Shown here piece after piece: positions 9,061 through 39,410 of a DNA stretch of 64,000 bases. Source of the stretch: Psammoneis japonica. Lineage: Eukaryota. Position 1 is the first letter of the stretch. Each line of letters begins with the position of its first letter. The position numbers and the translations under genes were made by a program. Where the stretch lies: contig QPGO01000058.1 in assembly GCA_008632985.1 (NCBI GenBank), positions 124,001 to 188,000 on the forward strand, read 5' to 3'. Below the pieces are notes generated by a model. That model made no database searches. It worked only from the letters and a program-made list of their open reading frames with translations, and was not told the origin of the DNA.

Positions 9061-11304
<2,244 letters not shown>

Positions 11305-11599
11305 TCACACCAAAACTAAGCACGATGTGTGTGAGCGTGTGCGTTGTTGATGGCGTTGTTCGGTTCATGGCATGATGTTTCACACACGTGGAATCAGTAC
11401 CAAATGTAACGTACACTACGCACGTACAAGTACGACGCATACCGCGTCTGCACGACGTCCGGTATTGGAGCGAGTGGTCGACGTCATCGTGTCAGATTGT
11501 TTAACGCCGAGAACATCAACATGACGTCAATTGTGTCTCTCTTTTTATTTTTCGCGAAATCGCATCGCGCGGACTTCCCTCCGACACCCAATGGCAACT

Positions 11600-14500
11600 A
11601 ACGAAACACACGCTTGCCAAAAGCACATCAACAATGGCGTTCATTGGCACATGCATTCAAGGAGGACACCTCTGCCCCTGCCGTGCACATTGAGTCTGCA
11701 CCATTGTCATCCTCCTCATGGGCCCACTGGATGCACATGAAGGCCGAAGGGGGATTCAGCCATGGCACAAGCCTGTGCCAGGTTTTGGTGCAGACAAAAA
11801 TCTCTGCAGAATTCCAAAAGGTGTTGAGACTGCCCACTCCTGGATTGTTGGTGTTGGCTGACAAGGCATCCATGACCAATTGTCCCACAAATTTCAATGG
11901 GTCCGGGGTGGCAGAGCTCCGGCCCCAGCTCTCCAAAAAACTCCAAAACACATGCCACCGCCACTTGTGCTGACACCAGGCAAGCTGCTGGTGCTGCTGT
12001 CACAGACTTCCAGTCAAATCAAAACAACAACTCAACAGCACTGGGAAAGTGTTGTCAAGAACCATGTTGACATTGTTGGTGACAGTTGGCAGTTGGTGGT
12101 GCAAAAGAACTTCGCTGTTGTCTGTCGCTGCACAGCACTGACCTTGTTGCAAGAGTTGGATGAAGATGTTGCCATGATGGTGTCTGTGTCAATGTTGGGC
12201 ATGTTGGTTGTCACAGAGTGTTGACTTGTTGCTCTTGAAAAAACTGACTTTTGGCCGCAATTCCCACATGACAACTTTTCATTCAGCAGCAGCCATGATC
12301 CAAAAAAAAGCTTCAAACAGACCATCACATGCCTCCTTGGCAATTTCCAACTCTGCTTTGGGGGGCCTGCAGCTGCAACTCTCAACATTTTTCAGTGTCC
12401 CCTGCTTCAAGGACTGACCAGAGTTTGGGCAAGACATTGGCAATGTGAGTGTTTTTGTGGTGGCCCTGTTCTTGTGGGCCTCGTGACACTCAAGTGCGTT
12501 GCCTTTTTGGACCCACAAGCAGGAAAGGCAGTGGGGCTCATCTTCTGCCAACACTTTGTCAAAGAGAAAATCTTTGTGACCTGTTGCCTTTTTTTGGCTT
12601 TCTTGACATTGACCATGGCAAACGCAGGGCAAAGAGTTACAAACTTGGACATGACTGATGAGAATTGAAGGATGGCTTCAATGTTGTCACTGCTGCAAAG
12701 GTGGGTTGTCAAAATGATTGTGCCCAAAACAGACTGTGAAGTGACATCAGTGCTCCCATGCAATCTTTGCGATGATCCAAGATCTCCTCATTTTGCGCGT
12801 GCATGTGCAATCCAGATCTCCAAGCTCATCAGCGCACGACTGAGGTTTCGTGGATCAGATTGTTCTTTTGTTTTGCTGTTGCGGTTCCTGAGCCAAACAC
12901 AAAAAAGCTTTGTGAACATCATTCTTTTTCAAGTTGGCATTCATGCCATTGTTTGGGTTGCCAGGGTCCAAGCCACTGACGATGCTGTTGAAGCATGCTG
13001 TGGCTCCGTTGTCAGTTTGGGCATCTGTGCTGCCATCACCAATGTGACAGATCTTGAGCCAGACTTGGATTGTGTCGAGTGCATCATGGGTGGGCTTGAA
13101 TCCAGTGTCGACTGCAACCAGGGCTGCTCAGAAGCTGAGAATGACGTTTGTGTCATTGTTCGTGGTTGCAAGAAAATGAGCCATGGCTGTGCGGATGAAA
13201 TGGAGGAAATGGTGTGGTGCATTTTGACTGCAGGAACCCTCAGTGTGATGCCATTTTTGAAAAGCACAAGTGCTGCCACATTGCATGGATTTTGGCACCA
13301 GTTTTCATTGTGGCTGGTGTGTGGCATCACCAAGTCATGAGGCGGAACAACCGTGGCACCCTTGACATGGTTCACGCAAGTCATGACATTGAACTTTCTG
13401 AGCAAAGCAAGGGCATTGTCCAGTGTTTTGTGCCACACAAAAACACAAAAATGTTTTGCAAAGGTGTTGTTGTAGAAAGTTGATGCTGTGTGTTTGACAA
13501 ACCAGGAATGACAGTGTCATCTTGTGCACTCTGCTTGCGATTCTTGTCGTTGACTTTCCATCTCACTTGTGGTGGAGAAGGAAAGGCATTGGTGTCAAGC
13601 ATGTGCAGTTGTTTCGATGGTTTTGTTGTGGGTAAAAAACAACACTTTCTTCTGTTCTTTGCTTCTTCTCTCCTCTTGCTGCTGCACCATGCATTTCAGA
13701 ATCCTGCCACCACAATCAATCCCACCGTGAAAACTGGCATGATGCAGCCACAAATTCGATTTCTGTCAAAAATTAGTTGCAAAGTGCAAGCTCCACATCA
13801 TGAGGCTTTTTCACGCACTGAAAACCCGTGCATGATCTCTTTTGGTTTGGATGCAGGGGCTCATGTGCTCCATTCTACTTTGTGTGAGAGACTCATGTGC
13901 GCTGGTGTTGTGGGTGTGCATTTTGCACAATGAGTGTCCTGGGAGGCAACTCCTTGTAGAAAGTTGTCAAGTCCGTCAAACACAACCCACCAACGCATTG
14001 CAATGCGAGTCAGCCATGCTTTCATGCTGGGAGCAATGCATGGCTGAGTTGTCATGTCAGCAGTTGTGAACCCCTCGCTTCTCTCCCAGAACCCATGGGC
14101 CCCAGAGAAACAAGACCTTGCAGAAGCATTGCGTTTGTGTCTTCTCGCTCACATGATCATCCCGTGCATTTATCTCCATCCTTGGCATCATGGCCAACAG
14201 CATGAACAAGAAAGTGCACTCCATGTTTCAAGTGCTTTTCAGCCAGGGGAACTGTCATCAGCAAACAAGAAAGAGGCTTGGGCAATTTAGCCTCTTGCAT
14301 TGCTTCAAATGAACGACCCACTCCTGCACTGGAATGTGCCTTGGCTGTCAACATCTCTCAAATTTGCTTGGTGCAGAGAACATGTTTGTTCTCTCAGAAT
14401 GTGGACACAAAAAATGAAGCATGCTGGCATGTGCCATGCTGCTCTTGAGTGGAAGCACAACAGTGGCAGAAGCTCTTTCTGGAACAAACTGGCAAGAAGG

Positions 14501-15830
14501 CAATGTGTGCCACAGCAAGAACAGGGGCATTGCTGGCATGGAAGAAGCTTGTGAATGTCCTCAAAAGCTGGGAGGTTGAGCAAAATGCACACAGCCTGTG
14601 TGAGGTGATGAACAAGCCCATGACATCAATGGAAAACAATGCACCATCCCTTGGCACATGCTTGACAACCTCTGTGAAGCTGTCAAACACAGATGTCAAT
14701 GCAGTCATTGACCTCCTGGCTGGAACGCTCAAGCAAGAGTGCACCAAACATTTTGAGTTGACAGTCATGTGGGGAAATCCAGATGCCAGCACAGTCAGCA
14801 AGCAAGCTGGGAAGCTCAAACAAGAATGGGCAAAGCATTTTGGGCCCAGCAAAATGCACCCCAAGGAACATCTTGGTGTGACCCCCCGTTGTTTGCTGCA
14901 CAGCAAAAAAAGCAAGTTCAAAATGATCGTGCTCCATTGTGTTGATGAACCAGCTGGGTTGTTGCTGACAGGAATGAGTGGAGAGAGCCCAACTCCAGTG
15001 GCAAGCTGTCCACTTCACATGAACAAGAAGAATCTGGAAACCTTGGACATGGTCATCCAAGAAACTTTCCACACGGTCACACAGCAACAGCAAAGATGTT
15101 GCTCCATTTGCAAAAAAGACTTGCCCCAACTGCAGACAGCAACATTGTTCTCATGTGCCCAGATCCATGCCTCTGTGGCTGACAACTGAAAGAAGCTGAC
15201 ATGAGTGTCTCAACATGACCCTTGGGTGCAGTCAATGGTGGGCTGGACACATCACACACAGCTCACCCCAAGAGTGTGTGAGAGGACCCCTTGCAGGTGC
15301 AGTGGCAACGCTGAGCAGAGTGTTCAAATTGGCAGTTCCTCCAAGCAGAAGCTGAACACTCACAATTCAATGGAAAGCATGCTGGTTGGCAGGGTGCGCT
15401 GTGTGGGCTGCGTGCCAAGAACCCCCGCTGATGTCGGAGCGACTCAGCTGGGCATGACCCACGACCAAAGAATCATCTGAAGAACATGACATGAATGATC
15501 TGAAAGGAAATGGTGCTGAAGATGGCACAAATGATGGAACTGCAATTGACGAGGACAACAACTGTGCAAGTGAGAATGCTCTGGGTGTTGGAGAGGACAG
15601 AGGAGAGAGAGAAGGATGAGGTTCTTGGTGTGAGGGGAGTGAGTGGTGTGTGATCCCTGGGACATCAGCTCATTCTAAAGCAATTGTTGATTCTAACACC
15701 CATCAGAACACACTGCATCTTTTCGTGGGAGATTTGTGACCCCACACATCCAAACCCAAGAGACAAAGGCGGTTGTTGAATGAGACACGAGAAGGGCATG
15801 GCGTTCCGCATTCCAAAAGCTGGTCCATCG
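11600..15830. mobile_element. TpA-depleted decayed repeat block B (family unidentified)
   Basis: Hand count: 2 TA in 14041-14640. Overlapping ORFs in all six frames are essentially Tyr-free and rich in Cys/His. CG is also reduced. Confidence 0.65.
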
Positions 15831-15917
15831 GATGGACGTACAGACTTGCGGGTTCAACAATGTAAAAACGAACAAACCATTGGTTCAGCGGTTCAGCACG
15901 GCTAACTCGGAAAGTAG

Positions 15918-16004
15918 GACATTTTTACTTAAAAAATGTCATGACGTCACAGTGAAGATGACGTCACATGCGAAAAAATAATGTTCTAGTGACGTCATCT
16001 TCAC
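15918..16004. repeat. Two adjacent inverted repeats with three TGACGTCA motifs
   Basis: GACATTTTT/AAAAATGTC at 15918-15940. Perfect 16-bp IR GTGAAGATGACGTCAC (15952-15967) with GTGACGTCATCTTCAC (15989-16004). Confidence 0.85.
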
Positions 16005-16313
16005 GTTACATTGTGTCACAATGTCATGTCGTATGATGTCATGTCATATAATATGATGTAATATAAATGACACAGCAGATGACGAGTGGGAGTGATCCCT
16101 TTCTCAGACAGCCTTCTGATGCATCTCTCATTGAAAAGAGGCAAACTGCTCTCTAAAACAAGTGGGTTGGAGGAGGAGTACTTCGGTTTTGGTGGCATGT
16201 TACACAGCGGAGGGACACCGTCATGCAACGAGTGTTGCTGTTCTCGGTGTGTGTTGTTGCTTCGCGACGCAAGTCGTCTTTGGTGGATCTGGGACGGCTT
16301 TGGAGCTTTGCCG

Positions 16314-16378
16314 CGTGCGTGACGTTGCATTTATTGAGATGGACAGGACAGCCGTGCGTGACGTTGCATTTATTGAGA
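16314..16378. repeat. Tandem duplication, 39-bp period
   Basis: CGTGCGTGACGTTGCATTTATTGAGA occurs at 16314 and 16353. Confidence 0.85.
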
Positions 16379-16633
16379 CAGGACAAATTGAGCTTTGGTT
16401 CAGCACTGGTTCAGCAAAAATCAATTGCCCTTTGGATGCTGGTTCAGCAAAAAATGTCTTGGTTCAGCACTTTGTTACTTATGGTTTTTGAATTATTGTA
16501 ATTCTATTCTTTTGTTGTTAGAGATAATATAATCCATCTGATAGATCTGAGCGATGCGACGAGTAGACGAGCAGCCGCGAGCCTGTGATTGAGCAAAACA
16601 CAAAACACGCACTTGCCGCAAAAAGCAGGAACA

Positions 16634-17803
16634 ATGGCGTTCATGGGTACACAGCGTGGTGTCATTCCGTCGTGGCGACGTATTTTTCTCTTGTGCATTA
16701 CCCCATGCTATAGTTGGATCCATCCTTTTGGTCATTGTTCTCTGAATCATATTTATACACGACACAAAAAATCGTTTCAGTTGCATTCCACTTATACTGC
16801 TCCTGCTCCGCCACCACAACAAATCATCAATGGTACAGTGACAATTTTGAAAGAAGGAGAGCATTTTCTTGTAGCATCTAAGCCTCGTGAGTTATTTTCA
16901 GATGCTTTTGTTATTTTTCACAGCGTTACTTTCCCCCCAACCCTTTCTCAAATTAAAATCGTGTTCCTCTTTTTCTCCTCAGCCGGTGTCGTTTGTCATC
17001 ACAGCGGTTTCACTGGATCGCGTTCCAAAAAACAAAAAACACCACAGATTCCCATGCTGCAGTGTGTCCGAAAAGCCACGAGTGAACATGACCATGATCG
17101 CGTCAATTTGATTCATCGATTAGACCGTGGTGCCAGTGGTTGTTTGCTTTTTTCTCGAGTCAACAATAGCACCTTGGCGGAAGAGGAAGATCCAACTTGT
17201 ACATTTCAACAAGCCATGACAGAGGCAACGAAAACATATGTGGCTCTAGTTCGTGGAGAAGGAATCTTGCACGGTGAGGACTTGAAGGAACGGGGTTGGT
17301 TCAATGTGACGAGGCCCATCAAGAATCAAAAAGGTGTAGTCAAGGACGCTACTACATTTATTCGATTTGTAGCTGGACAGGATGATGGTCGTAGTACGGT
17401 AGGTGTCGATCGACCGCGGGCCGGTTTGGTCTTGGCACGTCCCGTCACAGGACGATGGCATCAGGTACGACGGCATTTGAATGGATTGAGTCATCCGATA
17501 TTGGGGGATTCGTCCCATGGCAATTCACACGTGAATCGAGAATGGCGAGATCAACGTGGCTTGCCGTATGAACGATGCTGTTTGCACTTGGCAAGACTGC
17601 AAGTTCCAGAAACGCCATATTGTAAGGATGGAATTGATGTTTCCTGCCCTCTTCCGGAGGACATGATGGGTTTACTGGAAACTCATTTGCCACAAGTGCT
17701 GAAGGATGCAGAACCCATATTGCTACAAGAAGGGATTGATCTAAGGGCACGAGACGACACCGGTACCAGAGTCTTGCCATTTCAGTACGCTATACGCCAA
17801 TGA
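16634..17803 (+). CDS. RluA-family pseudouridine synthase (TruC-like), with in-frame 96-nt intron 16887-16982
   Basis: Splicing gives VASKPPGVVCH. Catalytic IHRLDRGASG, KTYVALVRG, PVTGRWHQVRRHL...HPILGD and CLHLARL are present. The N-terminal extension may be an organelle-targeting peptide. Confidence 0.9.
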   Translation: MAFMGTQRGVIPSWRRIFLLCITPCYSWIHPFGHCSLNHIYTRHKKSFQLHSTYTAPAPPPQQIINGTVTILKEGEHFLVASKPRELFSDAFVIFHSVTFPPTLSQIKIVFLFFSSAGVVCHHSGFTGSRSKKQKTPQIPMLQCVRKATSEHDHDRVNLIHRLDRGASGCLLFSRVNNSTLAEEEDPTCTFQQAMTEATKTYVALVRGEGILHGEDLKERGWFNVTRPIKNQKGVVKDATTFIRFVAGQDDGRSTVGVDRPRAGLVLARPVTGRWHQVRRHLNGLSHPILGDSSHGNSHVNREWRDQRGLPYERCCLHLARLQVPETPYCKDGIDVSCPLPEDMMGLLETHLPQVLKDAEPILLQEGIDLRARDDTGTRVLPFQYAIRQ

Positions 17804-17971
17804 TACTTAAAAAGGAAAAGAAAACTACTAAAATAATACCATAGCCGTGTAAACTAGTTGTCTTTATAAGCATCTACTATTTAGTAGATTCATTCGAATA
17901 CGCTTGCTGATTCGTATCTATACGAAGTATGTACTTTCCACACTGATTAGGAAACAATGAGAGATTTCTCA

Positions 17972-18949
17972 TCAACTCAGGCTCCTAATGTCATTGATAA
18001 AGGAAGAGGCAGAGGCCAGCCCAACCTTCCTGGCAACCATCAGTGGCACCACGGGGCTCTTGAGGTGGTTAATGTTTGTCATTTCCGTCTGGTTGGGGTT
18101 GCCTTCAACAGCCTTGAGGAAATGTGCATTGAGCAAGACCTCATTAATGACAGTTGAGTGGTCATCATTATCCGCAATCGGACCAGAGACAGTCCTGGCT
18201 ACCACCAAGTAGGATCCATCGTCCAGGCGGCGTCCGTGCATGAGACAAACAAACTCCAACAGGCGTCGAATAAGAGGAGCCTTGTTGACACTGCGAGTCA
18301 CCTTGGTTTCGCCTTTACCGTACTCTCCATCCTCCGTATCGACACTCTCTTGCCACACATGACGATCAGTGCGACCGTGACTGGAACGATTGTACTCCTT
18401 GACCTTGTTGCTATCCAGAAGGAGTTCAGCAAGGTCTTTTGGAGCCATGTTGACTAATCCAGAACTCTTGACGCACGGCAGGTCGCTTCCATAACCCGAA
18501 TGAGGAACGTTACCAATCCACATCCAAACAGTATCGTCCGTGACTTTCTCTCCCTGACTAATAAGCTTTGCAGTCCTTCGATCAGGAGTCCAGCTCTCCA
18601 AATCGGGCAGGGTCATTGCATACCGCACGAGTTCCGCAACAACCAACTTGACGCGCTCGGGAGACGCCTCATCCAACGCAATCCAGCGCTCATCGACGGT
18701 GGGATGCTTTTCCTTTTCCTCTCTGTGCAGTTCTTCCGAAATCACACCGTGCTCATGCAACTCGTCAACGGGTGTCGCCTTGACACTCGGGCAGAGATTT
18801 GTCAAATCAGACGTTCGTAAGAAACACAGAGACGATCGAGTTTCGGAACTCTCCGATTCTGTCAAGCCAAGACCAGAGTCTGCCTTTTCAACTAGCACTT
18901 CATCTGTATCGGTTGAAGCGGTCAACGTGGGTACTTCCTCCGTAGCCAT
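17972..18949 (-). CDS. START/lipid-binding domain protein
   Basis: LPCVKSSGLV...LAELLLDSNKVKEYNRSS...LEFVCLMHGR...TEMTNINH is a START-like pattern. Normal composition, 325 aa. Confidence 0.75.
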   Translation of the reverse strand: MATEEVPTLTASTDTDEVLVEKADSGLGLTESESSETRSSLCFLRTSDLTNLCPSVKATPVDELHEHGVISEELHREEKEKHPTVDERWIALDEASPERVKLVVAELVRYAMTLPDLESWTPDRRTAKLISQGEKVTDDTVWMWIGNVPHSGYGSDLPCVKSSGLVNMAPKDLAELLLDSNKVKEYNRSSHGRTDRHVWQESVDTEDGEYGKGETKVTRSVNKAPLIRRLLEFVCLMHGRRLDDGSYLVVARTVSGPIADNDDHSTVINEVLLNAHFLKAVEGNPNQTEMTNINHLKSPVVPLMVARKVGLASASSFINDIRSLS

Positions 18950-19964
18950 GGTGTCGTTGATGATTGCAATCTCTGAACTCGTTGTGCAGTGAATGTCGAA
19001 TGTCTTTCGAGGTCTCGCGTGACTGATTTTCCGGATTTGTCGTGTGTGACAGTAACTGGTATGTATTAACGTATGTTATATTCATTGGCTTATGCCTTTA
19101 CTGTACCTCTATCTTTGTATGATAGTACAATTTCAAACTGCCAAAACAGTAAATTTTGTATATAGATCTGAATACAGGAAATCCCGTTATAGCAAATTTC
19201 GAAATCTTAAACATGATATAAGACAATTATTATATGTCTATACCATGAATAAAAATATTCAATATTAATTATTAATATAATTAATAAGCGACAAAATCGA
19301 ACGACAAGCGTTGAGAGCTCTACAGAGCAGACCGCGATTTTCAGCGATTCCAGATTCTTGATCGGCGATCGAGGACCCGCCAAAAAAGGTGAACGACCAA
19401 CGCAACGACCAGGGACCAGCTGTAGGCCCTAGCCTACCGTGCTGTGGCTGTTGTGCTGTGCTGGTGGACAGAGTGACGGGCAAGCCGACATGCCTTTGTC
19501 AGTTTGTGCACTGAAACAAGGAGCCATTCATGATCACCTCTCCAACATGCGGAGTCACCTCAGGAGCCGCTCACGAGGAAAAAAATGGCGGAGCTGCAAA
19601 CAATGTCGAGGAGAAGGAAGAGAAGAAGATGTTCCATGACACTGCTTCACATGTTCGTGTTTTGTTCTTTTGTTGGTGTCTCATCACATCTGGGACACCA
19701 ACAATCCAGGTGTCGCACTGGCCGTCAAGATTTCTTGAAACAAAACCCGACATTTTCTCCCTTTAATCCAAGATCGTGCTGATTTGACGAGTCAGCTTTT
19801 CTGAAATGTTCAACAACAAACATCCATGTTCCTCAATTTGACCATTTGCCCCCCCATCCGACAAGCCTCACGTGTGTGTTTGATTCCATTTTAATTTCTG
19901 GATTGTGCGTTGATCAACTTTCTGGATCAAAATCGCCACCTGTGTCCGTCAATCTAGATTCTAA

Positions 19965-22771
19965 TTGTTTTCTCAATTTTCTCTCCCTGCCCATTCCATC
20001 CTTCCTCCCCGTCCATCCGCACATTGCATCTCTGTGTTTCTGCCCTCACCATGTCCCCAAGTGATTGTTGCTGCACCCACTGTTTGCTTTCGATTCTCTT
20101 CTCAACTCCTTCGTCTGTGTGCATCGGCCATGTTGTCTGATGGTCTTGTTTGTCCATGGTGCAAACGAAGCAGTTTCTTTTCCAAATGTGGCCTCAGCAG
20201 GCACATCGCAACTAACTGCCTCCGTTCCGCCGTTTCCACCAAGTCTTTTGGTTGTCCTCGTTGCGGACAATGTGGACTTGACTCTGAAAACAACGTGCAG
20301 CATCACCCATCTCGGCACTGCACCGCAGCATCTGGTCTCCATCCCCCATTGACACAGTTGCGCCGTACAACCCAATTGTCTTCTTCATCTGGCGGAACAT
20401 CTCTTTCCTCTCATCCTCTGGATTCTGCCTCCGTCGGCTCCCTTGGATCCAACACCAACAAACCCAAATGTCCCCACTGCTGTGTTCCCTTTTCCAACAT
20501 CGCCCTTCATCTACAGAAGTGCTCACCCTGCCGTGAAAAAGAGGAAATGTCCCTTCGCCTGCATGCCGCATCTTCTGCTGCCGCCCATGCACTTCCCCCT
20601 CCAGATGACGACCATGATGAATCACTGGACGACCATGACGATCCTGCTGGGTTTGGTTTCTCCGACGACGAACCCCCTCCTCCCCTCCCCGAAGTCCTTT
20701 GGAATCCAGCTCCATCTCCTCCCACACCAAAGGACAATTCTTCTCCAGCTTGTCCTCCCTCTGCCGGAAGTGGACTGCGCCCACCCTCTGTCAGACGCTC
20801 TGGTCGATTGCGCTCAGCTGCCAACTTTGCTGCTGCTGGTGCAGCCTCCCAAAATGTCCGCCGATTTGTTTTGTTTGCAGATGATGGTGTGTCCGCCCTT
20901 GGAGAAGACAGTCCTGTGGATGTTCCCGAGTTCATTGGAGCCGACCATTGCGATGGCAGTTGTGGCCCCCCCTCAATTTCCCGTCCGATGGAAGATCCTG
21001 TTTCCTCCCTCGATCAACACAACCCTCTTGGCCCGCCGCGTGATGTCGCACCCGATGAGGATTTCGATGTGCCTCCAGTCTGCTTGCCCAGCATCGCACC
21101 CATGGTGCATTTGCTGCATTTGTGTCGTCGGTCAGGTGTTGCAATTGACTTTGTCAACAAAGCAGTGAGAATTTTGCATGAAGAGCATGCAGAAAAACTG
21201 CTGGATTTGTCCAAGCCACCCATCACTGCCGCCATGGCGATGAAGCAACTCCTGGGGTTATTTCCCAATGTTCCTCTCCCCCGCACTGCCACTGTGATGC
21301 TAGAATGTGACAATCCAACACAGCAACAGAAGGATGGACCCAAATGTCATCGCTCCCCACCTTTCCTGGTTTGCAGTTTCACCAAGACCTTGCAGGATCT
21401 CTTCACCGAGCCAGTGTTCCGTGATCTTTCCAAGTTGCAGGTTAATCCAAATGATGTCTGGTCACCTCATGTGCCACCCCCCACCGACGGCAATTTGGAA
21501 CCCAGCGCCAGCCCAGCTGACGGTTTTGAGATGTCGTTCCCGGATTGTCCTGGGGACTGGCGATTGTCCACTCAAAGTCAAGACATGGGTGACGGCGAGT
21601 GGCAACAACGTTGCACCAATGCAAAGGAAACGGCATCTGATTTTCACGTTCACCTTGTCAATTGCTTGGACAAGACCGGAGTTGGTGCGGTCAATCCTCA
21701 CGGGATGGAGCCTGCAATGTGCTCACTTGCCATGATTCGAGAGGACGCATGCCATGACCACTGTTGTTGGCATCCACTCGGATTCATGCCCAATTTGGAC
21801 AGGAAAGACAAGAAAGACAAGCTTGGGTGCCTTGTTGTTGCCAACCATCACCGCATTCTCAAGGAGGTCCTCCGTGGTCTGCTTCATTGCCAGGCAAATC
21901 CACCCATTGTTCGTGCAATGACAGGCACTCAACACCGCCATGTCAGAGCTGTGACACATTGCAACTCCCTGTTGGGGGACATCCTCAATCAAGAACGCAT
22001 TTGTGGAAGAGTCATGGGCTGAAGCAAGACCGAGAGGTTGTCTCACAACTGCCATGTGCCCTCCCACCGTTCTGATGACCCCCTTCATGTCTGCCAATTT
22101 TTTAACCAAGCTTTCACAGAGTTGCTCACTGTGGCTGCATTGGGTCCGGATCCAGAGGATGACAACAGCCGTTGGCACCAGTGTGTTGAAAGCGTTTCCC
22201 GGAAACATCCTGCAATGACATAAAAAAAAAGGCTGAGACTGAGCTGGCTTCATCCCTCATTTGCCGAATGACCACATGCTCCAAAATTTTGAGAAAAGTG
22301 TTTGGACAGCACGCAGTGGACAATGCTTGCTTTCCACTTGACATGGGAGACAACCCACGTGGTGCATTTGGCATGACCATTGCTGACACAATGCATGTGT
22401 TGGAGGCGGGCATTGTCCCTCAAATGATGGAGGCAATCATTGGAGAGATGTCTGCCAAACAGAAAGAGGAGTGCGACCACATTGCATCTGAGTTGTTCTG
22501 CACATCCCATTGTCGTCTAGGTCAGAGATGTGACTGCCCACAAATTCGAGTTAACGGGGGACTTTCCACACTCAGTCAAGAAACAGAGTCACCCAAACAA
22601 TGTCTGTTCACTGCTCAACATGAGTTGATCAGCGACTTGGACAAGATTTGGGAGAATGTGGTTTGCTGTGGGAGATGTGCTTTATGTCACGATGCTGTGC
22701 AGCCCAGTGTCAAGTGCACAAGCAAAAAAGTGACACCAAAGGCATGCATTGCCATGCACACGCATCAATGA
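19965..22771 (+). pseudogene. Decayed Plavaka-like transposase with N-terminal C2H2-like Zn fingers
   Basis: Motifs CLDKTG...PHGMEPAMCSL, WHPLGFMPNL, NHHRILKEVL, LLGDILNQERICGR, and HAVDNAC...DMGDNPRG...DTMHVLEAGI, recognised by eye as Plavaka-type. There is no Tyr in the 685-aa ORF. Confidence 0.7.
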
Positions 22772-22897
22772 AAAACTGACACCAAATTCTTCTGTTGACA
22801 AACATGTTTAACAACAGAAAAGTGATGCCGAATTGCTTTGTTAACAAATGGTTCTAACAACAAAAAAGTGACACCAAATTGCTCTGTCAACAGATGG
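22772..22897. repeat. 46-bp tandem repeat, about 2.7 copies
   Basis: Units begin at 22772, 22818 and 22864 (AAAA(C/G)TGA(CA/TG)CC(A/G)AATT...GT(TG/TA/CA)AC). Confidence 0.85.
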
Positions 22898-23373
22898 GTG
22901 CATTTCTAAAAAAGTGACAGTTTGTTTGTGGTGCGGAATGTGTGGTGGATGGAAGCTTTTGCTTTGTGTCTGCCGCTGTGGTGATGTGAAAATGTCTCAC
23001 ATCATCACCAACAGAATTGTGAGCAACAAAATTGTTTTCCATGCTTTTGAGACAGCTGGGATGACCAATTTAATGAGATCATTCAGTGAACAGGATCGAC
23101 GAAGATCACATCACACGTGACCATTTGTGAAAAAAACGTCTGTGATGCACCCGACAGATGGACTGCCATTGTCAAAACATCACATGGGACTGTTTGCGAA
23201 AAAAACACCCGTGGTGCCCACAACAGACAGACTGCCGTTGGCAACACACATTCAGCGAGAAAGCCGTTTTCGTTGCAAAGCAATGGGTGCGGACTTTCGC
23301 TACATTGGGTCTGTTCCACTTTAAGAAAAAGACTGGGCACCATTTGATTTGGCAGAACAGGCAACTTCAGAGA

Positions 23374-24100
23374 ATGGCGCGGAAGTGTTCTGTGAACGGA
23401 TGCCAGAAATTTGCCCGTTGGCCGACAATGTTGTGCCAGAAACATGGCAAGTTGCTGACACACCCGGGCGAAATGAAATCTCATGTCGTCAAGAGCAAGA
23501 AGGTGGGGTCCAAAGAAAGAGAGCACCAGGAAAGAAAAAAAGGCTGCTTGCAAAAATTCAAAACACCACCACCCCTGCTCAACAAGATGACAATGCTTGC
23601 AAACAAGGCACCAAGCAGGAAGGGAGAAAAGGAAGGACACCATTTGTCGGCGAGTTTGCCATTGACAAAAAGGAAAAGGCGGAAGGCATTGGGTTGGCAG
23701 AAAAAATGTTGGAGTTCATTCCTGGCTTTCCCCTGGCGGGTGATTCAAGCAGAAAGACATCCCGGCACACAGCAGCAAACGCTCCTGCTTCAAGTTCAAG
23801 ATCAACTTCTGGTCAAAGGGGGAAATTCATCGCGATTGCGTGGAAACAAAATCATCACCTGGCAACAAATTTTTCACCATGTTTCTGTTCCTTGATGACA
23901 CAACGGAGCACAATGGTGCAGTGGAGATGTGGCCGGACAGTTGTGAGGTGACATTGAATGAGAAGGAATGCGAAAGACAATTGGTCAGGTTGGGTTTGGA
24001 AAAACAATCACTGGTTGGAGAAGCAGGCACTGCATTTGTTTTGATGCAAGAATGTTGCGCCGGCAAGCGTGCGAACACAGCAAGCGTGTGAACAAGCATG
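23374..24100 (+). pseudogene. Decayed Zn-finger (CxxxxC...CxxHG) plus PhyH-like 2OG-Fe(II) dioxygenase
   Basis: RKCSVNGCQKFARWPTMLCQKHG, then across frameshifts EIHRD (HxD), FFTMFLFLDDTTEHNGAVEMWPDS and GEAGTAFV-FDARML. Confidence 0.5.
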
Positions 24101-25639
24101 TGTTGGAACACAAAACTGGCGAAGCAGCAAGTTGACACAGGCACAAAGTGGGTTTGTGTAAAGGGCAATTGACAATGCATTGCTTGCATGGACGACAGTT
24201 GCATTGCAACAAAGTGAAATTGCAAAGTCACCCACTTTTGGCAGGCTTGAATTTACGTTTGATGTCAGACCCTGGGTCGTTCCCAGTGGAATGCCTGGTC
24301 TCCACGGCATCGTCTCTTTTCTTGGCGCACTTGTGAAGTGGGTGCCTGTTGACACCGCCTCCCCACAACAGATTGTCTGGACAGGCAGGAACAAAGAATG
24401 CTCCATGCCTCCATTTGTGCGTGTGAACACAAAACATCACGTCCAGTGAAATGACAATGGTGCCTTCAGGACACTCGTTGGACAGCATCTCCTCAAGTTG
24501 GTTCTGTGTCGCATTGTTGTCAAAAAGCATTTGCCCATTGTGGCCATTGAAGAAAATCTTTAAGTTGTTCAGACGGCACAACCGACGAACAGCATCGTCT
24601 TCTGAGAGGAAGTCCTGATTGATCAGGGTGGGAAGCGACTGGTGTTGTTGTGCCATGTGGCATCACACCACTGAGAGCCAAGATCATGACTGGGATGGTG
24701 GAACTCGATGCTGCAGGCATCACAGGCAGGAACAAGCAGACGACAGGCAATCGCAAAACCGCCAACACCACCACCAACGTCAAGGAAATTAAAACGGCTT
24801 CGAATTTGTGCCGCAAAGAGAGCGGGGTTACAAATGACCTCGGCGGAGAAGGCAAAGCTTGCCGCACCACCATGTGATTCCACACCACCACCAGCAAAAC
24901 GACCAATTTGATCGTCAATTGGTGGCATGTGATTGCAGTGGAGGGAACACGCATTCCTGTGACGGGAACGACTCACGACAACCACATCTCAGTGACAACA
25001 ACACACTTCAGTGGACATTAAAGTGGGTTGGAAAATTTGGGCAACAGAGAGAGCAACTGGACAAATGTGGTGTCGGGGAAGCAGAGGGAATGACCTGTTA
25101 AGACAGGGACAACAAATGGGAGGTTTGACACGACTCAACACACCAAAGGAAGCAGATGTTGCATCAACAAGGAAGCGCAATGCATGCACTGACTTGAGGA
25201 GATACAACACATTGTTTGGCATTGATTTAAATGACATGGCAATCTTCATTGGTGTGTTGGATTGGCCAAAAAAGGTGCGCAATTCAAAACAGTGAAACGT
25301 TGATAGAAATGCAAACATGGGGCAGGGAATGAGAACTCAAAAATGACACAAAGACCTGTTTGAATCGAGAGAGGACACGCGAGCAATGACAAAACCGAGA
25401 AAATCACATGCAAAAGTGCGTTCTTTTTGCAACTTGCCTTTCATGAAGCGACAGGAAAGGACGGAAGTTCCAAAAAAGAGGAAGCCATTGGGAAGGTAAA
25501 AAAAAATGGAGGATGCGGTTCTCACAGGAGTGACGGAGGGAGGAAGCGCAACTTCCAGCGGCAAGTGAGATCGAGAAAGGACATGACAAAGAATTGCTGA
25601 TGAACTGACATGGTCATTGGATTGATCTGTGTGGTGTCA

Positions 25640-26620
25640 CATGAAGTCACCATGAGTCCTGCAGTGGCGGCCTTGTTGCATGCACAAAGAAACAAACATG
25701 GGGAATTGAACAGATTCCAGCATGCAGGTGGCGATTCAAGTTCGGTGGTGACTCCCACAGAGGGATGTCTTGTGTTGGATCGTGCATCGGCGGTGAGCGA
25801 GAAATTGATGGCATCGATGTTGACCAAGGTCATCAATGAGAGTGTTTGGCCATGTTGCAAGTTCACAATCTTCGATCATGAACTCGCCGTGGGAGGAGAT
25901 CACATGAAATTGGTTCTGCAGGAGTTGAGGAGCATGGTGTCTTCACCGGAGAAGTTCTGGGAAGAATGCAAAGAGGTGCTCAGGACCAAACTCAACCGAA
26001 AGAGGAACAATGTGCAGGACAACATCAGGAGGAGAATGACAGGCAAGCAGATGTGTGCATGCCGGTGATTGTGTTGGAGGTGATTGTCCAACGGGATGAG
26101 TGTCTCTTCCTTTGCCATTGTCTGTGCAGTTGCTGCTTTAGAGGGATCGCTGGTGGCTTGCAAAGACTTGACAAAGGGAAGAAATGACAAGGACACACGC
26201 GTGTGGTTCTTGGAAACTGTGGTGCCGACAGTGGTGGGACAAGCGCAGTTTGGCAGAAGCACAACCAACATGCTTCAGGAATGGCTTTCGGTTTCGTCGG
26301 AGGCATTTGCTCTGCTGGTGTGCTTGAACTGCTGCAACAAGGTGAAGGACACGGCAGAGAAATTGGAAAAGGAGGAAAACATTGCAAGGAGAAGAAAGCC
26401 AACTGTGAAAGATGCTGCTCCTGCAAAGTGCACAGCGCAGGCGGCGGGGGAATCGGCAAAGAGGAACCAAGGATGGAGCAAGGAGGGGATCGAGAAGTGC
26501 AATGATCCATGTCACAACCAGGGATTCGGTGCATGGTTCAAGGAGAGAAGACAAACTTGTCTCAGGAGGAAAACAAGAAACGCAAAAGAGAGGAAAAAAG
26601 AAAGGAGAGAGAGGAAGGAT
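25640..26620 (+). pseudogene. Decayed transposon accessory ORF (2 exons) of the type found with diatom Plavaka-like elements
   Basis: VWPCCKF...FWEECK...LNRKRNNV and SSEAFALLVCLNCC...KCT...GWSKEGIEKCN match a recalled pattern SxEAFALL..NY..KYT..GWSxEGI..YN, with Tyr replaced by Cys. Confidence 0.55.
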
Positions 26621-27158
26621 GGGCGGCACCAATGGGAGAGGACCTGCCATTGCAGGCAGTGGCTGCAGGCAACGGAGCGGCAGCAAACACCGCAATGGCC
26701 ACCAACCAAACTGGTGTGTAAACTCAGTTTGAAACAAACAACAATGTCTGGACAAGTGAAAATAAAAAAAAACATTCTGCGATCGGCCCAGATGCAACAA
26801 CATGTGGCAATTGGGAATTTGGGTTTGAAAACGGCACAGCAATGAGATGAAATGTAGGCAAGTTGGCAGAAAAGGAGGGTGGATTGCAAGCAGCAACATT
26901 TGTGTTAAAAGAACGAGAAACCCCAATGTTAATTGGGGCGCAGGTCTGCATTGTGTGAAAGGAATGATCACACTTAGAAGTGAGAAGCGATTTGGGGTTT
27001 AGAAGCTCACAAACTTGCACAGTTCTCATGTATGTTCAAGGAGAGAATTGGCCCACAAGGTGACAAAAATCTGGCATTAAAGTCAAGAAATGCCCAGATT
27101 ATGGCAGACGGTCAGACCCAGATTATTGGCGTCCCAGATGCAGTGTGGCTTGATTTAA

Positions 27159-27940
27159 ATGAAGAATCGAGCAAGCCGTTTTGGGAAACTCGTTCAGAAC
27201 GACAGAGGCAAGAGTCGTCAACGGATTCGAAGCAATGTGATGAAGCCGACCTTGCCGTTTAGCCGACATGCGCATTGCAATTTTCATGACAACACATGTG
27301 AGTGTGGAGCATTGCGATTTCTTAAAAGCCACTGCTGGGCAAAGTCTGCAACAAAGTTTCCGCTTTTGAGTCAATCCGATCTCACATTTCATGCGTCTCA
27401 AAAAGACAATCATCCCATCGATTTGTTGGAAAGTTTTGGATTTCGAAATGTCATTGTACAAACATGCCAGCAGCCTCACTGTGCAAACAAATGGAAATTT
27501 CCATTGTTCCGTTTGCCAGAAACGTCTTTTTTGAAAGAAGCACAGAAACAGAGTGGGGCCAAGCAAGCCGTGGTGGATCCATTTGCAAAGCATTGCTTTG
27601 ATGACTGTGATTTTGTCATTCGCATTAATCCCAACATCCTGTTTCGTGATGATCAATGGGTGATCAAGCAGATTCTTGACCCATCCATTGATGCCATTTT
27701 GGCAAAGGGCATCCCACGACCGCCACAATGGCAATGTCAACAAGGCCACAATGACACGCCAATCCTGTTGCACGCGGATTTTGCAGGGTTTCGACCCTCA
27801 CGCATGAATGCATCGGCACTTGTGTGGCAAGCCGAGCACAATGAAAGAGATGCAGCGGAGGAACACTTGTCAAAAGCGTGGAATTCATTGGCCACATCGG
27901 ATCGAGCAGCATGGAGTTGGTCTGGTTTTCCTCGAGCATT
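27159..27940 (+). pseudogene. Decayed host-type gene, possibly glycosyltransferase-like
   Basis: FVIRINPNILFRDDQWVIKQILDPSIDAIL...LHADFAGFRP...AEEHLS reads as a real protein but contains no Tyr before the N gap. Confidence 0.4.
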
Positions 27941-27964
27941 NNNNNNNNNNNNNNNNNNNNNNNN
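27941..27964. other. Assembly gap (24 N)
   Basis: Run of n in the sequence. Confidence 0.99.
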
Positions 27965-28500
27965 GCGCCTGTCATGCATCGACATGAAATTCTCAAGGAC
28001 TGCCCCAACTGTTTCGCTGCTGCGGATGGCAAATGGCACTGATGTCAAGGATTTTAGAGACAAGGAATGCTGCAGGTTCTACTCTGATGAATGGCATTGA
28101 CAGCCACCCAAGAAGCTGCACGCATCTGAAAACTGGACTCTGCCAGGCCCACTCTCTTGCTAACTAACTTTCAACTTGCCATTCCCGGCACCGTCTGCAA
28201 TCACACCAGGGCAGTTCAACCCCTTCAGAAAACGCTTCTTTCACTCTAAAGAGTGATCTTCACTGATGTGATGTAAGAATCGGGGGGGGGGGGGGCAGCA
28301 GATGCCCAACGATGATTGGGACGACTTGAACGAATAGGTACAATCTCGCGCGAACTTCAAATCTGCTGGGTCGAAGTCGGTCGCGAGTCGTCGTCTTGAG
28401 TCGCTTGTCAACAACATATTCAATATGTTCAATCTGGTAACTTGTCACCCCCCGCTTATATGTACAGTGCGTGTTGCTAGGTTAGCTCGAAGAAGCCACC

Positions 28501-31500
28501 ATGGATGCTCCAAAGAAACGTCTTGTCTTTGAGGAATCTCAGCAATGCGAGCGAGTCCAAGAACACAAAATCCTGTCTAACGCTTTTGATCGACTGGACG
28601 AACCCGAGATTGTCTTTGTTGCCGGTGCCAGTGGAACCGGGAAATCGTCTCTGGTGGCCAGTTTCGGTCGTCAGATTAAAGACAATTGTTACTTTGTATC
28701 GGGAAAGTATGATGAATCAGTGCAGCAAGATCCATTTGCGGTTCTCTTTCGAACAATCGAACTTTTGTGCAATCAAATATTGCAACAAACTCCAGAAGAA
28801 ATCGATCGCTTGCGCTCGCGATTTCCCGAGTCTTCTCTCAAGGAATTCCACGTCCTGGCCGATTCAGTTCCCAGTCTGGTCACTCTTCTAGGACCTTCCA
28901 TGATGCAGCTAGAGTCGTCCTCAGAAACCACCTCTGCCACAACTCTGTCAACAAAGATGAACTTTCTGTTTGTCAGACTCTTGCAGTGTTTGTCGACCAA
29001 AGAAAAACCCGTGGTGCTATTCCTCGACGACCTGCAATGGATCAATGCTCCCACTTTGGACCTCCTGGTGTTCCTGCTGACGGACGCCAAGATTCGTCAC
29101 TTTATGTTCCTCGGATCCTATCGACGAGAACAAGAACACGAACTGAAGGACCTCTTTGACAAACTCAATGACTACAACAAGGCCACCACCAACCTTTTAC
29201 TGGACAATCTGTCGCAGGAAGATGTCACTATGTTTGTGACACGGGTGCTAGATCATAATGATGCCGAGTTATTGGCCCAGACTCTCTACCAAAAGACTCA
29301 AGGTAACCCCTTTTATATCAAATCCTACTTGGAGCTTCTGGTAAGGAAGGAAATATTGACGTTCTCGTATAGTCAGTATGCCTGGACCTGGGACTTGGAC
29401 CGTGTCGAGGGTGAACTGAAATTATCAGACAATGTTGTAGCAGTGGTCCTGGCCAAACTAAGGGGGTTGCAATATTCGTTGCAACACGTCATGGTATTGG
29501 CATCCTACCTGCCGTCGACCTTTGACAGGTCTATCCTTCAGACCCTCATGGAGCAGTGTGGAGATGATTCGACCAATCTAGAGCAACGATTGGATGACTT
29601 GGTCATGGACGGATTGCTAGTGAATACGATTGGGAGCACTCAATATTCGTTTGCGCACGATCGGATTCAGCAAGCTAGTACCGAATTTCGTGAAAACAAC
29701 GGACAAAATCAAGAGAAAATGAACCAGGCTGTTGGTAAAGTGTTGGCCGATGTAGCTCTCAGTGAAAATGCCGAGGACTGGATGATTTTTGCTGCCATTG
29801 AACGCCTGGAACAGTGTGGGTACAACGATCGTGAAACAATGATAAGTTATTACACCATTGCTGGGAAGCGATCCGCATCGATGGCTGCTTACGGTCCCGC
29901 AGCACTCTACTATGGAAAGGCCATTTCGCTCTTGCGAAGCATCAATAAGGAAAGCCAGGACCGTAGCCCAGACACAGGGATCTGGGCTACTCATCAAGAA
30001 CAATGCTTGGATCTGTTCTTAGCAGGTGCCGAAGTTGAATTCACGATTGGTAACTACGAGCGTGGCAACGACTATAGCCAAGAGTTGCTATCGAATTCGA
30101 AAAGTGAGCCGCATACACTTGAAATGTATCGGTTGCTGGCGGAGGCCTTGACACGCCAAAAACGGTCGGTGGAAGGAATGGAACACAACAAGAGAATACT
30201 TCAAGCGGTGGACGCCTATCCTCGACATGCAGGCAACCCAATCGACATGCTGGTTCGACTTTTAAGGACCAAGTCCAAGCTCAAGAAAATGCCCACCGAC
30301 GAAATTCTGAATCTTCCGATGGCAGTCGACCCAAAGGTGCTGTTAGCCATGCGCACCATCGAAAGTTTGGTTACGCAATGTGGCAACACTGGGAAGATAG
30401 TCTTGTTCTTGCAGTGCGTCATGGTGATGTTCAAAATAACCTTTCAGCATGGGTTGACCCCGCAGTCTGCAATCGCATTCATGGGGTTTTCCATGATCAA
30501 CTACAAGGGGTTTGGTGATGAGGAATTTGGGAAACGAATGAAAGAGATTGCCATGGCGTTGTTCGAAAGAGTCCCGGGTTCTAGCGTGCTGGTGCCCGTA
30601 CTAGCAGGAAGTGACGTCGATGCGTGGTACATGCCATTGAATAGTCTACGTGAGAGGTACGATTCGTGTTTCGAGTACGCGATGAGTGCAGGCGACTGCT
30701 TTGGCGGAATGTTGGGCTTTGCAATGAATGTGGCCATCGCCTTTCTTTGTGGCCTCCCGCTTAGCAATACTGCTGCCGATTCAAGGATTCTCATTACCAT
30801 GCTTCGGCAATACAAGATTGAATCGCTTTCTGCCATGTTCCAGCCATTTGACGACTTGGTATCTTGCCTAACCGGAACAATTGAAGATCCAATCCAGTGG
30901 GTAATCGATTTTGAACTTCCAAACAAGAAGCGTATGGACAAAAGCCGTATCCCTGAATTCGTACAAGGATGTTTAAATAGAGCAATGGCCGCATACGTCT
31001 TCGGGAATCTGCAAGAGGCAGAGAAGTATTTGAAAGGCTTCCGACACTATGCAGATCATGGCGGCGCCTTCTATGAAGTGATATCCGACACGTTTTATGG
31101 ACCACTTATCTACATGGCAAGATTCCGCCAAACGAAGCGGAGAAAGTATCGAGCTCAAGCTGAGCGGGAGTACAAAAAGTTGGCGAAAATGGCAAGAGAG
31201 AGGGGCCTCAACATAGTTCATAAGTTCCATATTGTCGAAGCAGAACGCGATGCAACCTTTGCGAAGGGCTTGAGTCAAGACAAAATCAAATCCAGCTATG
31301 ACAAGGCTATCGCAACATCACGGAAACCTGGATACATGCAAGATGCAGCTCTGGCAAGTGAGTTAGCTGGAGAGTACTTTGTAAGGGCTGCGGACAATGA
31401 CTGGGCATGCCATTATTTGAATCAAGCTGTTCGGCTCTACGCAGAGTGGGGAGCCGAAGGTAAAGTGCAGCAAATGATAAAACGCCATGGATCAATGATA

Positions 31501-31659
31501 ACTGTTTCTGGCGATGACCTGGCTGAAATGAAGACTACACGCAAACCCAGATATTCCCTGGCTTCCAGAATGGACATAGGTTCCTCAATGAAAAGTGGCT
31601 CTGCCTCTATCTCGCATTGTCCAGAGACTCTATCTTCGTCTGCTTCCGTTGCGTCTTAA
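28501..31659 (+). CDS. STAND/AAA_16-type ATPase with helical TPR-like C-terminus
   Basis: Walker A GASGTGKS, FVSGKYD, Walker B VLFLDDLQW, KTQGNPFY, YSFAHDRIQQA, and DAALASELAG...YAEWGAEGK. Single-exon, 1052 aa. Confidence 0.88.
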   Translation: MDAPKKRLVFEESQQCERVQEHKILSNAFDRLDEPEIVFVAGASGTGKSSLVASFGRQIKDNCYFVSGKYDESVQQDPFAVLFRTIELLCNQILQQTPEEIDRLRSRFPESSLKEFHVLADSVPSLVTLLGPSMMQLESSSETTSATTLSTKMNFLFVRLLQCLSTKEKPVVLFLDDLQWINAPTLDLLVFLLTDAKIRHFMFLGSYRREQEHELKDLFDKLNDYNKATTNLLLDNLSQEDVTMFVTRVLDHNDAELLAQTLYQKTQGNPFYIKSYLELLVRKEILTFSYSQYAWTWDLDRVEGELKLSDNVVAVVLAKLRGLQYSLQHVMVLASYLPSTFDRSILQTLMEQCGDDSTNLEQRLDDLVMDGLLVNTIGSTQYSFAHDRIQQASTEFRENNGQNQEKMNQAVGKVLADVALSENAEDWMIFAAIERLEQCGYNDRETMISYYTIAGKRSASMAAYGPAALYYGKAISLLRSINKESQDRSPDTGIWATHQEQCLDLFLAGAEVEFTIGNYERGNDYSQELLSNSKSEPHTLEMYRLLAEALTRQKRSVEGMEHNKRILQAVDAYPRHAGNPIDMLVRLLRTKSKLKKMPTDEILNLPMAVDPKVLLAMRTIESLVTQCGNTGKIVLFLQCVMVMFKITFQHGLTPQSAIAFMGFSMINYKGFGDEEFGKRMKEIAMALFERVPGSSVLVPVLAGSDVDAWYMPLNSLRERYDSCFEYAMSAGDCFGGMLGFAMNVAIAFLCGLPLSNTAADSRILITMLRQYKIESLSAMFQPFDDLVSCLTGTIEDPIQWVIDFELPNKKRMDKSRIPEFVQGCLNRAMAAYVFGNLQEAEKYLKGFRHYADHGGAFYEVISDTFYGPLIYMARFRQTKRRKYRAQAEREYKKLAKMARERGLNIVHKFHIVEAERDATFAKGLSQDKIKSSYDKAIATSRKPGYMQDAALASELAGEYFVRAADNDWACHYLNQAVRLYAEWGAEGKVQQMIKRHGSMITVSGDDLAEMKTTRKPRYSLASRMDIGSSMKSGSASISHCPETLSSSASVAS

Positions 31660-35674: not shown

Positions 35675-36120
35675 TGCAGCATGCATGCAGACAAAAGGTT
35701 GTTTTTGTCACGCCCTTTGTGACATTTAAAGGCTGCAACACGTCGCCGTGACACATTGACTCTTGTCAGTGGCTGTGCATTGCACTCCTCCCCATGCATC
35801 ACGCGTTCATGCGGCTCTTTACCAACGTGCACTGACACTGCACGGTTTTGGCGGAACAGTGTGGGCACGTGCGAAGGAACGTGCAGAACTGTACAGAGTT
35901 TTACGCGTTCGACAGTGATGACGTTGCTGCAGACAACTCCCACTCAGGGTTTCGAACCCCTGGCCTCCTGCCCAATGGTTGCGATGAACCACTCCGCTGT
36001 GAATTCACAATGCAGCATGCATGAAGACAAAAGGTCACTTTTGTCACGCCCTTTGTGACATTTAAAGGCTGTAACACGTCGCCGTGGTGCATTGGCTCTC
36101 ATCAGCAGCTGCACATTGCA
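35675..36120. repeat. 110-bp direct repeats (35675-35784 and 36011-36120) flanking a 226-bp spacer
   Basis: Ungapped alignment TGCAGCATGCATG...TTTGTCACGCCCTTTGTGACATTTAAAGGCTG...CATTGCA. Confidence 0.9.
35934..36006 (-). mobile_element. tRNA-derived (Pol III A/B box) SINE-like head
   Basis: Minus strand has CAGCGGAGTGG (A-box-like), a D-stem GCGG/TCGC and CAGGGGTTCGAAACCCTG (T-arm, B-box). The anticodon region is too short for a functional tRNA. Confidence 0.5.
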
Positions 36121-39383: not shown

Positions 39384-39410
39384 CCACACACACACACACA
39401 CACACACACA
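39384..39410. repeat. (CA)n microsatellite preceded by a C run
   Basis: cccccccccacacacacacacacacacacacaca. Confidence 0.9.

Follow-up and report, generated by a model that had tools for sequence, protein, structure and literature searches.

A decaying minisatellite in a dead mobile-element relic of a diatom, and the likely loss of TpA around it by targeted hypermutation

Fungal repeat-induced point mutation (RIP) changes C to T, mostly at CpA; it raises TpA, lowers CpA and TpG, and needs duplicated DNA. Diatoms have a protein, DNMT4, that PMC9998398, in the section that treats it, relates to the fungal RID protein and gives as of unknown function. A change aimed at TpA itself has been reported from Bigelowiella natans: the main text of a preprint (Mettrop et al., bioRxiv 10.64898/2026.01.13.699255) describes de novo A>G/T>C mutation at TpA only, with a rate of about 6e-7 per site and generation in the integrated DNA of a giant virus and a virophage, along with 124 TpA-poor, CpA- and TpG-rich clusters in which transposon domains and unannotated genes are over-represented; it counts 231 de novo mutations in B. 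natans and proposes an ADAT2-like deaminase. As far as our literature searches reach, that preprint is the only report of targeted TpA hypermutation or "TpA depletion", and no paper joining TpA hypermutation and diatoms was found. Here we describe a stretch of 64,000 nucleotides from the diatom Psammoneis japonica (GenBank assembly GCA_008632985.1, contig QPGO01000058.1, positions 124,001 to 188,000 of the forward strand; hereafter the window), in which normal DNA is interspersed with stretches that have lost nearly all their TA. One of these purged stretches contains the relic of a mobile element, and the relic carries a degenerate array of 46-bp tandem repeats.

We consider it likely that the array is a decaying minisatellite in a dead, multi-copy DNA transposon relic of the diatom's nuclear genome, purged of TA by TpA-targeted hypermutation beside CpG decay. 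Two separate processes would have been at work. The first would be a hypermutation of TpA in mobile or foreign DNA, acting on one strand or the other; an enzyme is probably behind it, with adenine deamination in 5'-TA-3' as the leading candidate, and the rate of the process would be set by one flanking base, in the order TAT > TAC > TAG >> TAA when the change is read from the adenine. The second would be ordinary decay of putatively methylated CpG. Each TpA or CpG site lost would end as TpG or CpA, and a column of the array that now reads TG, TA and CA in three successive units would most likely go back to a TA on which a small palindrome was centred.

The SNF1/AMPK kinase of the window has diatom proteins as its best matches, at 70-78% identity, which marks the window as diatom DNA. 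The window's overall observed-to-expected ratio (o/e) of 0.36 for TA (CG 0.70, TG and CA about 1.4) arises because normal and purged DNA are mixed and reflects no genome-wide bias. The normal class (37,246 bp) has o/e values of 0.56 for TA, 0.94 for CG, 1.18 for CA, and 1.22 for TG, with individual stretches ranging from 0.52 to 0.60 for TA and from 0.84 to 0.97 for CG. At equal base composition, the purged class (26,754 bp, about 42% of the 64 kb) has 0.07 for TA (129 sites), 0.38 for CG, 1.68 for CA, and 1.72 for TG. It is made up of five TpA-poor, CpA- and TpG-rich stretches of 1-9.5 kb each (Table 1), at whose edges the TA count in 500-bp bins drops from 10-43 to 0-8; sliding counts show the borders to be less than about 150 bp wide. 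Among six purged segments TA o/e is 0.04-0.09 in all, CG o/e runs from 0.21 to 0.82, and TG and CA stand at about 1.5-1.9. The uniformity of the one loss and the variability of the other make the two separable and point to two processes.

The losses and gains balance. The purged class is short of 912 TA and 823 CG relative to the scaled normal class and has an excess of 839 TG and 839 CA (a gain of 1,679), which fits conversion in place; TA is 93% under expectation, the gain in TG and CA is to match, and on the plus strand TG and CA are even (2,823 and 2,846). This balance bears on the possibility that CpG decay acted by itself, so that the split sites of the array were once methylated CG and the TA of its second unit is a product of double decay. 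There is evidence of such decay in the element, whose CG o/e is 0.55. CpG decay, however, is unable to remove TA, of which 912 are gone, and the segments with near-normal CG (0.74 and 0.82) are just as TA-poor as the rest; we regard CpG decay as quite unlikely to be the whole explanation and return to it below.

The nine genes with Pfam support are all found in normal DNA. The idea that purged DNA is mere intergenic or non-coding DNA can be rejected, because normal intergenic DNA here is TA-rich, with 39 TA in positions 19053-19285, adjoining a purged stretch. A different account invokes selection or inherited composition, with TA and CG avoided for the sake of function (RNA stability, chromatin, or evasion of host factors) and no directed mutation. 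It draws on the TA of the normal stretches, which is low too, and on the surviving TTAA, which could be functional sites. We think it quite unlikely, as the borders are sharp and match the left end of the element, the adjoining non-coding DNA is TA-rich, and 124 open frames of the purged DNA are without Pfam domains. Evidence set out below also speaks against it: the transposase of the element is decaying (conserved Tyr and Arg lost, and a frameshift), related transposons have normal TA, and TG<>CA swaps between duplicates reflect change after duplication.

Whether a TA is lost depends in a simple way on its context. As a fraction of the normal class, TTAA survives at 0.73, ATAT at 0.00, and the remaining NTAN contexts at 0.02-0.27. 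A per-strand multiplicative model, in which the nucleotide 5' to the T determines survival (0.11 for A, 0.24 for G, 0.39 for C, and 0.82 for T), fits 16 of 16 contexts. The direction of the products can be read as well: the 152 lost TTAB sites went nearly all to TTGB, which gained 204 against 87 for TCAB, with a TCGB loss of 197, and ATAB sites were lost both ways. Read as a change of the adenine, and provided that CpG decay is strand-symmetric, the pattern would give the order of susceptibility stated above, with TAA refractory.

A rule this clean is difficult to reconcile with an artefact of sequencing or assembly, for example modified bases miscalled in heavily modified DNA. Reads of one public run (X1), the one that contains this stretch, bear on this point. 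The library type of the run is unrecorded, and the assembly may have been built from this very run, which leaves some room for such an error. Yet separately built contigs of this run match the window across the single-copy purged stretch at 11500-15500 with about 0.5% differences (13-14 differences per 2.2-2.5 kb). Support there comes from two contigs at depth 55-61, one spanning the left border and the other stopping at 15411, inside the right border. Moreover, if a palindromic dinucleotide were miscalled strand by strand, TA and CG would turn up in the consensus too, and both are absent, and the copies of the element differ among themselves at TG/CA sites. We judge an artefact to be highly improbable. 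Within the same single-copy stretch, 16 differences between window and contigs are listed at 12000-13500, about 7 of them CG<>CA/TG and 2 TA<>TG/CA; they are probably allelic, and both processes may still be yielding variation.

The element that carries the array is a member of a multi-copy family. Summed word depth in the run X1 contigs is 1,600-4,900 over approximately 19.3-27.2 kb and about 55 in the flanks, and 3,740 contig pieces of 85-99% likeness fall across 8000-27900, most of them, to judge by depth, in the element; the single-copy contigs stop at 19522 on one side and begin at 27111 on the other. In a second run from the same sample (X2), coverage is confined to parts of the gene-bearing DNA and takes in no purged stretch. 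Over 8000-27900, the differences between the X1 contigs and the window, which come mostly from element copies, number 504 transitions and 118 transversions. The purged DNA continues beyond the right end of the element into a single-copy flank (27146-28054), where TA o/e is 0.08, as in the element, and CG o/e 0.82, near normal. Within this flank, the open frame 27159-27938 lacks Tyr and has no Pfam match, and a run of 24 N occupies 27941-27964; the purge of the flank could be spill-over from the element, or the flank could be an older relic.

Coding sequence identifies the element as a former transposon. A decayed transposase remnant lies within and beyond an open frame of 685 residues (19965-22019), and the array starts about 130 bp 3' of the remnant, inside the element. 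A HMMER search with the frame returned 157 homologues at E<=1e-3, the best at 4.1e-52 with 38% identity over residues 353-684. No short homologue was found at E<=1e-5 among 43 candidates in a set of 5.8 billion proteins. One of 11 homologues scanned has a match to Plavaka (PF18759; E = 8.3e-5) that, at 22.4 bits, falls short of the 26.3 cut-off; the window's own transposase frame has no Pfam match and does not reach the Plavaka cut-off, and a Pfam search of the frame that follows (22190-22768) was empty.

The homologues give the changes a direction. We mapped 150 of them (202 matched segments) on the codons of the window and used the columns in which 15 or more sequences were aligned and the majority residue made up 50% or more. 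None of the five majority-Tyr columns is kept, compared with 108 of 152 other majority columns, and the five codons now read CAT, CGA, TGC, CAT, and TGC, four of which are CAY or TGY. Where Tyr occurs in at least 20% of homologues (15 columns), the window has Cys or His at 7. The whole frame is without Tyr, which makes up 2.6% of residues in 9 homologues, and it is rich in Cys and His (5.3% and 5.0%, against 2.6% and 3.0%). A case in point is codon 21846 (Table 1), where all nine contigs from other genomic copies, with all the depth there, read T and G at 21846-7: given Tyr in the homologues, His here, and Cys in the other copies, both products of an ancestral TAT are visible and polarized by an outgroup. 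CpG decay by itself does not account for conserved Tyr codons that now read CAY or TGY. It has left its own mark, as 6 of 12 majority-Arg columns are changed and 4 of these 6 have become CAN or TGN, which shows that this element has undergone CpG decay too.

Related transposons lack the purge. At nine metagenome loci whose transposases are related (39-65% identity), sought with a narrow alignment of three transposase homologues, TA o/e is 0.48-0.71 and CG o/e 0.11-0.71, so that CpG decay appears common in this transposase family and TA purging does not. This is a further difficulty for CpG decay as the sole cause, since these relatives show that decay with TA left normal.

The identity of the element also bears on editing at the RNA level, in which element transcripts would be A-to-I edited in a UA context by an ADAR-like activity and then copied into DNA. 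Known A-to-I editors prefer a 5' U, according to the discussion in the B. natans preprint (10.64898/2026.01.13.699255), and this would fit a TA target. The element, however, codes for a DNA transposase and not a reverse transcriptase, the TG and CA gains are equal, and single-copy stretches have been purged too, all of which makes RNA editing very unlikely. Biased T:G mismatch repair, the kind of process by which the rarity of CTAG in E. coli is explained, is a further conceivable mechanism.

The array is a head-to-tail minisatellite beyond chance, with a period of 46 bp and 2.8-4 copies. Tandem Repeats Finder gives the 46-bp period at 22771-22897 (2.8 copies, 75% matches, score 140), a second repeat search gives four copies at 46-bp spacing at 22720-22892, and a fifth unit (U4) retains its first 11 bases alone, from 22909. 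A degenerate 28-nt core pattern has three matches in the window, namely the three central units (U1 to U3), and none of 100 shuffles had three (mean 0.00); the degenerate 46-mer core has no match in metagenome contigs. The units have drifted far apart, with identities of 32/46 (U1-U2), 30/46 (U1-U3), and 31/46 (U2-U3), and 14 of the 22 columns that vary among them do so by transition only, the other 8 involving a transversion. An initial annotation had reported a 46-bp repeat whose units read GTTGAC (22794), GTTAAC (22840), and GTCAAC (22886) at one site and GACACC (22778), GATGCC (22824), and GACACC (22870) at another; direct reading, Tandem Repeats Finder, and the core-pattern search bear out the repeat and all six hexamers.

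The same annotation took the three units to polarize the change by themselves, from an ancestral TA to TG in one unit and CA in another, as a loss of TA on either strand and not CpG decay. On a star tree the focal column does need fewest changes from a TA root (two, against three from TG or CA and four from CG), but a branching tree with a TG or CA root also takes two steps, and the degenerate unit U0 reads TG, so that the three units do not suffice. We nevertheless hold that the ancestor of the focal column was probably TA. Unit U2 contains a perfect 10-bp palindrome (TTGTTAACAA) with TA at its centre, and for the palindrome of U3 (CTGT..ACAG) to be perfect again its central dinucleotide must be TA or CG, as TG or CA breaks it. 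Although a CG centre would mend the palindrome as well, the route from CG to TA must create TA in DNA that is losing it; since a step from CG or TG to TA is disfavored there, TA is favored as the ancestor. U2 would have kept its GTTAAC because TTAA is refractory on both strands; 4 of the 45 TA of the element sit in the array, and all 4 precede A. For the focal column, then, the proposed history is probable, with TA the best ancestor on the strength of the palindrome and the TTAA context. The second site cannot be assigned. It is a double transition in U2, the other four units reading CA, and its intermediate could be either TA or CG.

Loss of TA to TG or CA on either strand holds for this stretch of DNA, by virtue of the mass balance, the Tyr codons, codon 21846, and the duplicates considered next, and the array in itself is no proof of it. 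To set CpG decay aside was wrong in general, given the CG depletion of the element, the changed Arg codons, and the 69-bp tandem pair beside the array, which has 6 CG<>TG/CA differences and is a point in favor of the CpG explanation. That pair is followed by further short tandem repeats at 23401-23460 (33-bp spacing) and 24063-24098 (17-bp period), so that, downstream of the transposase, the element is repeat-rich. The array has internal symmetry as well: U1 is itself part of a 30-bp near-palindrome (22790-22819; centre CATG, arms 89% complementary), and the units hold several GTT.AACAA-like motifs that may be binding sites of the element. Between 22 and 28 kb, purines are in excess on the plus strand.

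Duplicates in the purged DNA, which differ for the most part by TG<>CA double swaps, give evidence on timing. Between the two members of a 115-bp pair (35671-35785 and 36008-36121) there are 14 transitions and a single transversion, and 10 of the former account for 5 TG<>CA swaps; the mean in simulated 115-bp pairs with equal numbers of changes was 0.42 swaps, and 0 of 20,000 runs had 5. With TA and CG together occupying about 9% of positions in the normal class, some 10 such sites are expected per 115 bp, and half of them resolving differently between the copies would fit the 5 swaps seen. The swaps place the change after the duplication.

Several points weigh against our interpretation. The evidence consists of sequence patterns, from which an enzyme, inosine, and de novo mutation are inferred, and the product-direction test presumes that CpG decay is strand-symmetric in context. 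The array alone is statistically weak: its unit pairs have 2, 2, and 1 TG<>CA double swaps where 0.35-0.44 are expected (P = 0.03-0.32), and the TG/TA/CA column is one data point, lacking an outgroup and faced with a TG in U0. Other genomic copies were compared at 40 of the 625 differing places listed, none of them within the array. Summed contig depth is not copy number, and run X1, possibly the window's own assembly sample, guards against assembly error and not against error shared by the reads. Terminal inverted repeats were not found at the approximate ends of the element, where local alignment scores 23 against a shuffle maximum of 27; when transitions are ignored the score is below the shuffle mean. 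A mobile origin is identified for one purged stretch only, with weak leads at most for the other four, and Pfam searches of 124 of the 127 purged-stretch frames of at least 90 residues (three spanning the N run were excluded) gave noise-level matches only. Finally, a purged stretch and a flank each occur in a single copy, so triggering by repeats is unsupported.

Table 1. Positions of purged stretches, the element, its array, and three genes in the window (o/e, observed-to-expected ratio)
Feature	Position	Strand	Remarks
Purged stretch B1	1-1000		Cut by window start; TA o/e 0.07, CG o/e 0.74
Purged stretch B2	11500-15500		Single copy in reads; TA o/e 0.04, CG o/e 0.29
Purged stretch B3	19436-28054		Element and about 900 bp of single-copy right flank
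Purged stretch B4	34000-43570		TA o/e 0.06, CG o/e 0.21; contains the 115-bp duplicate pair
Purged stretch B5	46750-50500		TA o/e 0.09, CG o/e 0.34; open frame with P-loop motif, 48848-49813 (-)
Multi-copy mobile-element relic with array	19493-27145 (ends approximate)	+	TA o/e 0.09, CG o/e 0.55
Decayed transposase remnant	20793-22597	+	Read in frame 3 up to about 22193 and, after a frameshift, in frame 2 from about 22184; tblastn
Codon 21846	21846-21848	+	CAT (His) here; Tyr in 105/127 homologues; TGT (Cys) in other genomic copies
Degenerate 46-bp array	22725-22919		U0 22725-22770 (16 first bases clearly alike), U1 22771-22816, U2 22817-22862, U3 22863-22908, U4 22909-22919
Focal column pair	22796-22889		TG 22796-7 (U1), TA 22842-3 (U2, GTTAAC), CA 22888-9 (U3)
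Second aligned site	22780-22873		CA 22780-1, TG 22826-7, CA 22872-3; U0 and U4 also CA
69-bp tandem pair next to array	23108-23245		12 transitions, 5 transversions, including 6 CG<>TG/CA sites and 2 TG<>CA swaps
SNF1/AMPK-type kinase	9064-11304	-	Intron-free gene, normal stretch
STAND-type NTPase	28486-31656	+	Intron-free gene, normal stretch
XPG/Rad2 nuclease	60342-63704	+	Intron-free gene, normal stretch

The remaining purged stretches offer little by which to name them. Neither blastn nor a comparison of 32-mers in a purine/pyrimidine alphabet found similarity among the purged stretches of the window beyond local duplicates. The minus-strand frame at 48848-49813 has a Walker A-like motif (ALSNQGKT), a Walker B-like motif (LLILD), and no Pfam match; Protein Atlas gives weak leads (0.80-0.85) to clusters of P-loop and (viral) packaging ATPases, which are leads only. 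The same is true of a weak lead (0.84) to DUF6570 clusters for the plus-strand frame at 14449-15186, in the single-copy stretch. A (CA)13 microsatellite is found at 39385-39410, in the most strongly purged stretch. In the normal DNA, other eukaryotic domains occur on long intron-free frames, a DOMON-cytochrome b561 and a PhoX with fibronectin type II among them, and Pfam scans of the window frames found no ADAT2-like deaminase encoded in the window. Normal intergenic DNA at 8604-8661 holds a TA-rich 16-bp repeat, both tandem and palindromic (CTACTCTAGCTAGTAG), of which length variants and joints occur in the reads.

If our interpretation is correct, the process is present in a second major algal lineage, and the window shows what it looks like when run to completion. 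Candidate enzymes would then have a trinucleotide signature to match, and silenced or foreign DNA in diatom genomes could be mapped from sequence. The interpretation also carries a warning, as open frames in purged DNA would be long only because TAA and TAG stops have been erased.

Overall, the locus combines features of several known systems. Like fungal RIP, it shows decay of a mobile element by transitions only, in sharply bounded stretches, with coding capacity destroyed; the signature, however, is the opposite one (TA 0.07, CA 1.68, TG 1.72), and the stretch at 11500-15500 and the flank at 27146-28054 have been purged though single copy at a likeness of at least 85%, older lost copies being possible. 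With methyl-CpG decay it shares CG o/e of 0.21-0.82, the gain in TG and CA, and the Arg changes from CGN to CAN or TGN, the methylation itself being putative. Methyl-CpG decay leaves the TA loss unexplained, and CpG loss varies by stretch whereas TA loss is uniform. The element resembles transposons of the Plavaka and Kyakuja-Dileera-Zisupton type in its large transposase-like homologues, one of them with the weak, sub-cut-off PF18759 match, and differs from them in that the window frame has no Pfam match and no terminal repeats were found at the approximate ends.

The closest likeness is to B. natans, as described in the main text of the preprint. In both organisms A>G/T>C change at TpA gives TpG or CpA according to strand, discrete regions are affected (of foreign or mobile origin there; here with sharp borders, and with a mobile origin identified for one stretch), single-copy DNA is among the targets, and the long-term trace is a set of TpA-poor, CpA- and TpG-rich clusters. 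The differences are equally clear. The host here is a diatom and not a chlorarachniophyte, the target identified is the relic of a DNA transposon and not integrated viral DNA, CpG decay coexists with the purge, and mutations observed there de novo are here inferred from patterns in the DNA. The purge is also far more complete, with TA o/e of 0.04-0.09 compared with a Rho of 0.45 in their giant-virus (NCLDV) region, and it follows a TAA-refractory trinucleotide rule of which we found none in the preprint's main text, supplements aside. As a tentative extension, which we hold to be possible and somewhat short of probable, a diatom genome defense may mark mobile or foreign DNA, repeated and single-copy alike, and erase almost all of its TpA through strand-wise adenine deamination in 5'-TA(T/C/G), independently of CpG methylation; such a system, shared with Rhizaria (Bigelowiella), would be an old and widespread "reverse RIP" of the SAR (stramenopile-alveolate-rhizarian) lineages, with a TAA-refractory signature by which sequence data would suffice to recognize it. 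The larger finding is a diatom counterpart of the Bigelowiella phenomenon, much nearer completion and with a defined trinucleotide signature.

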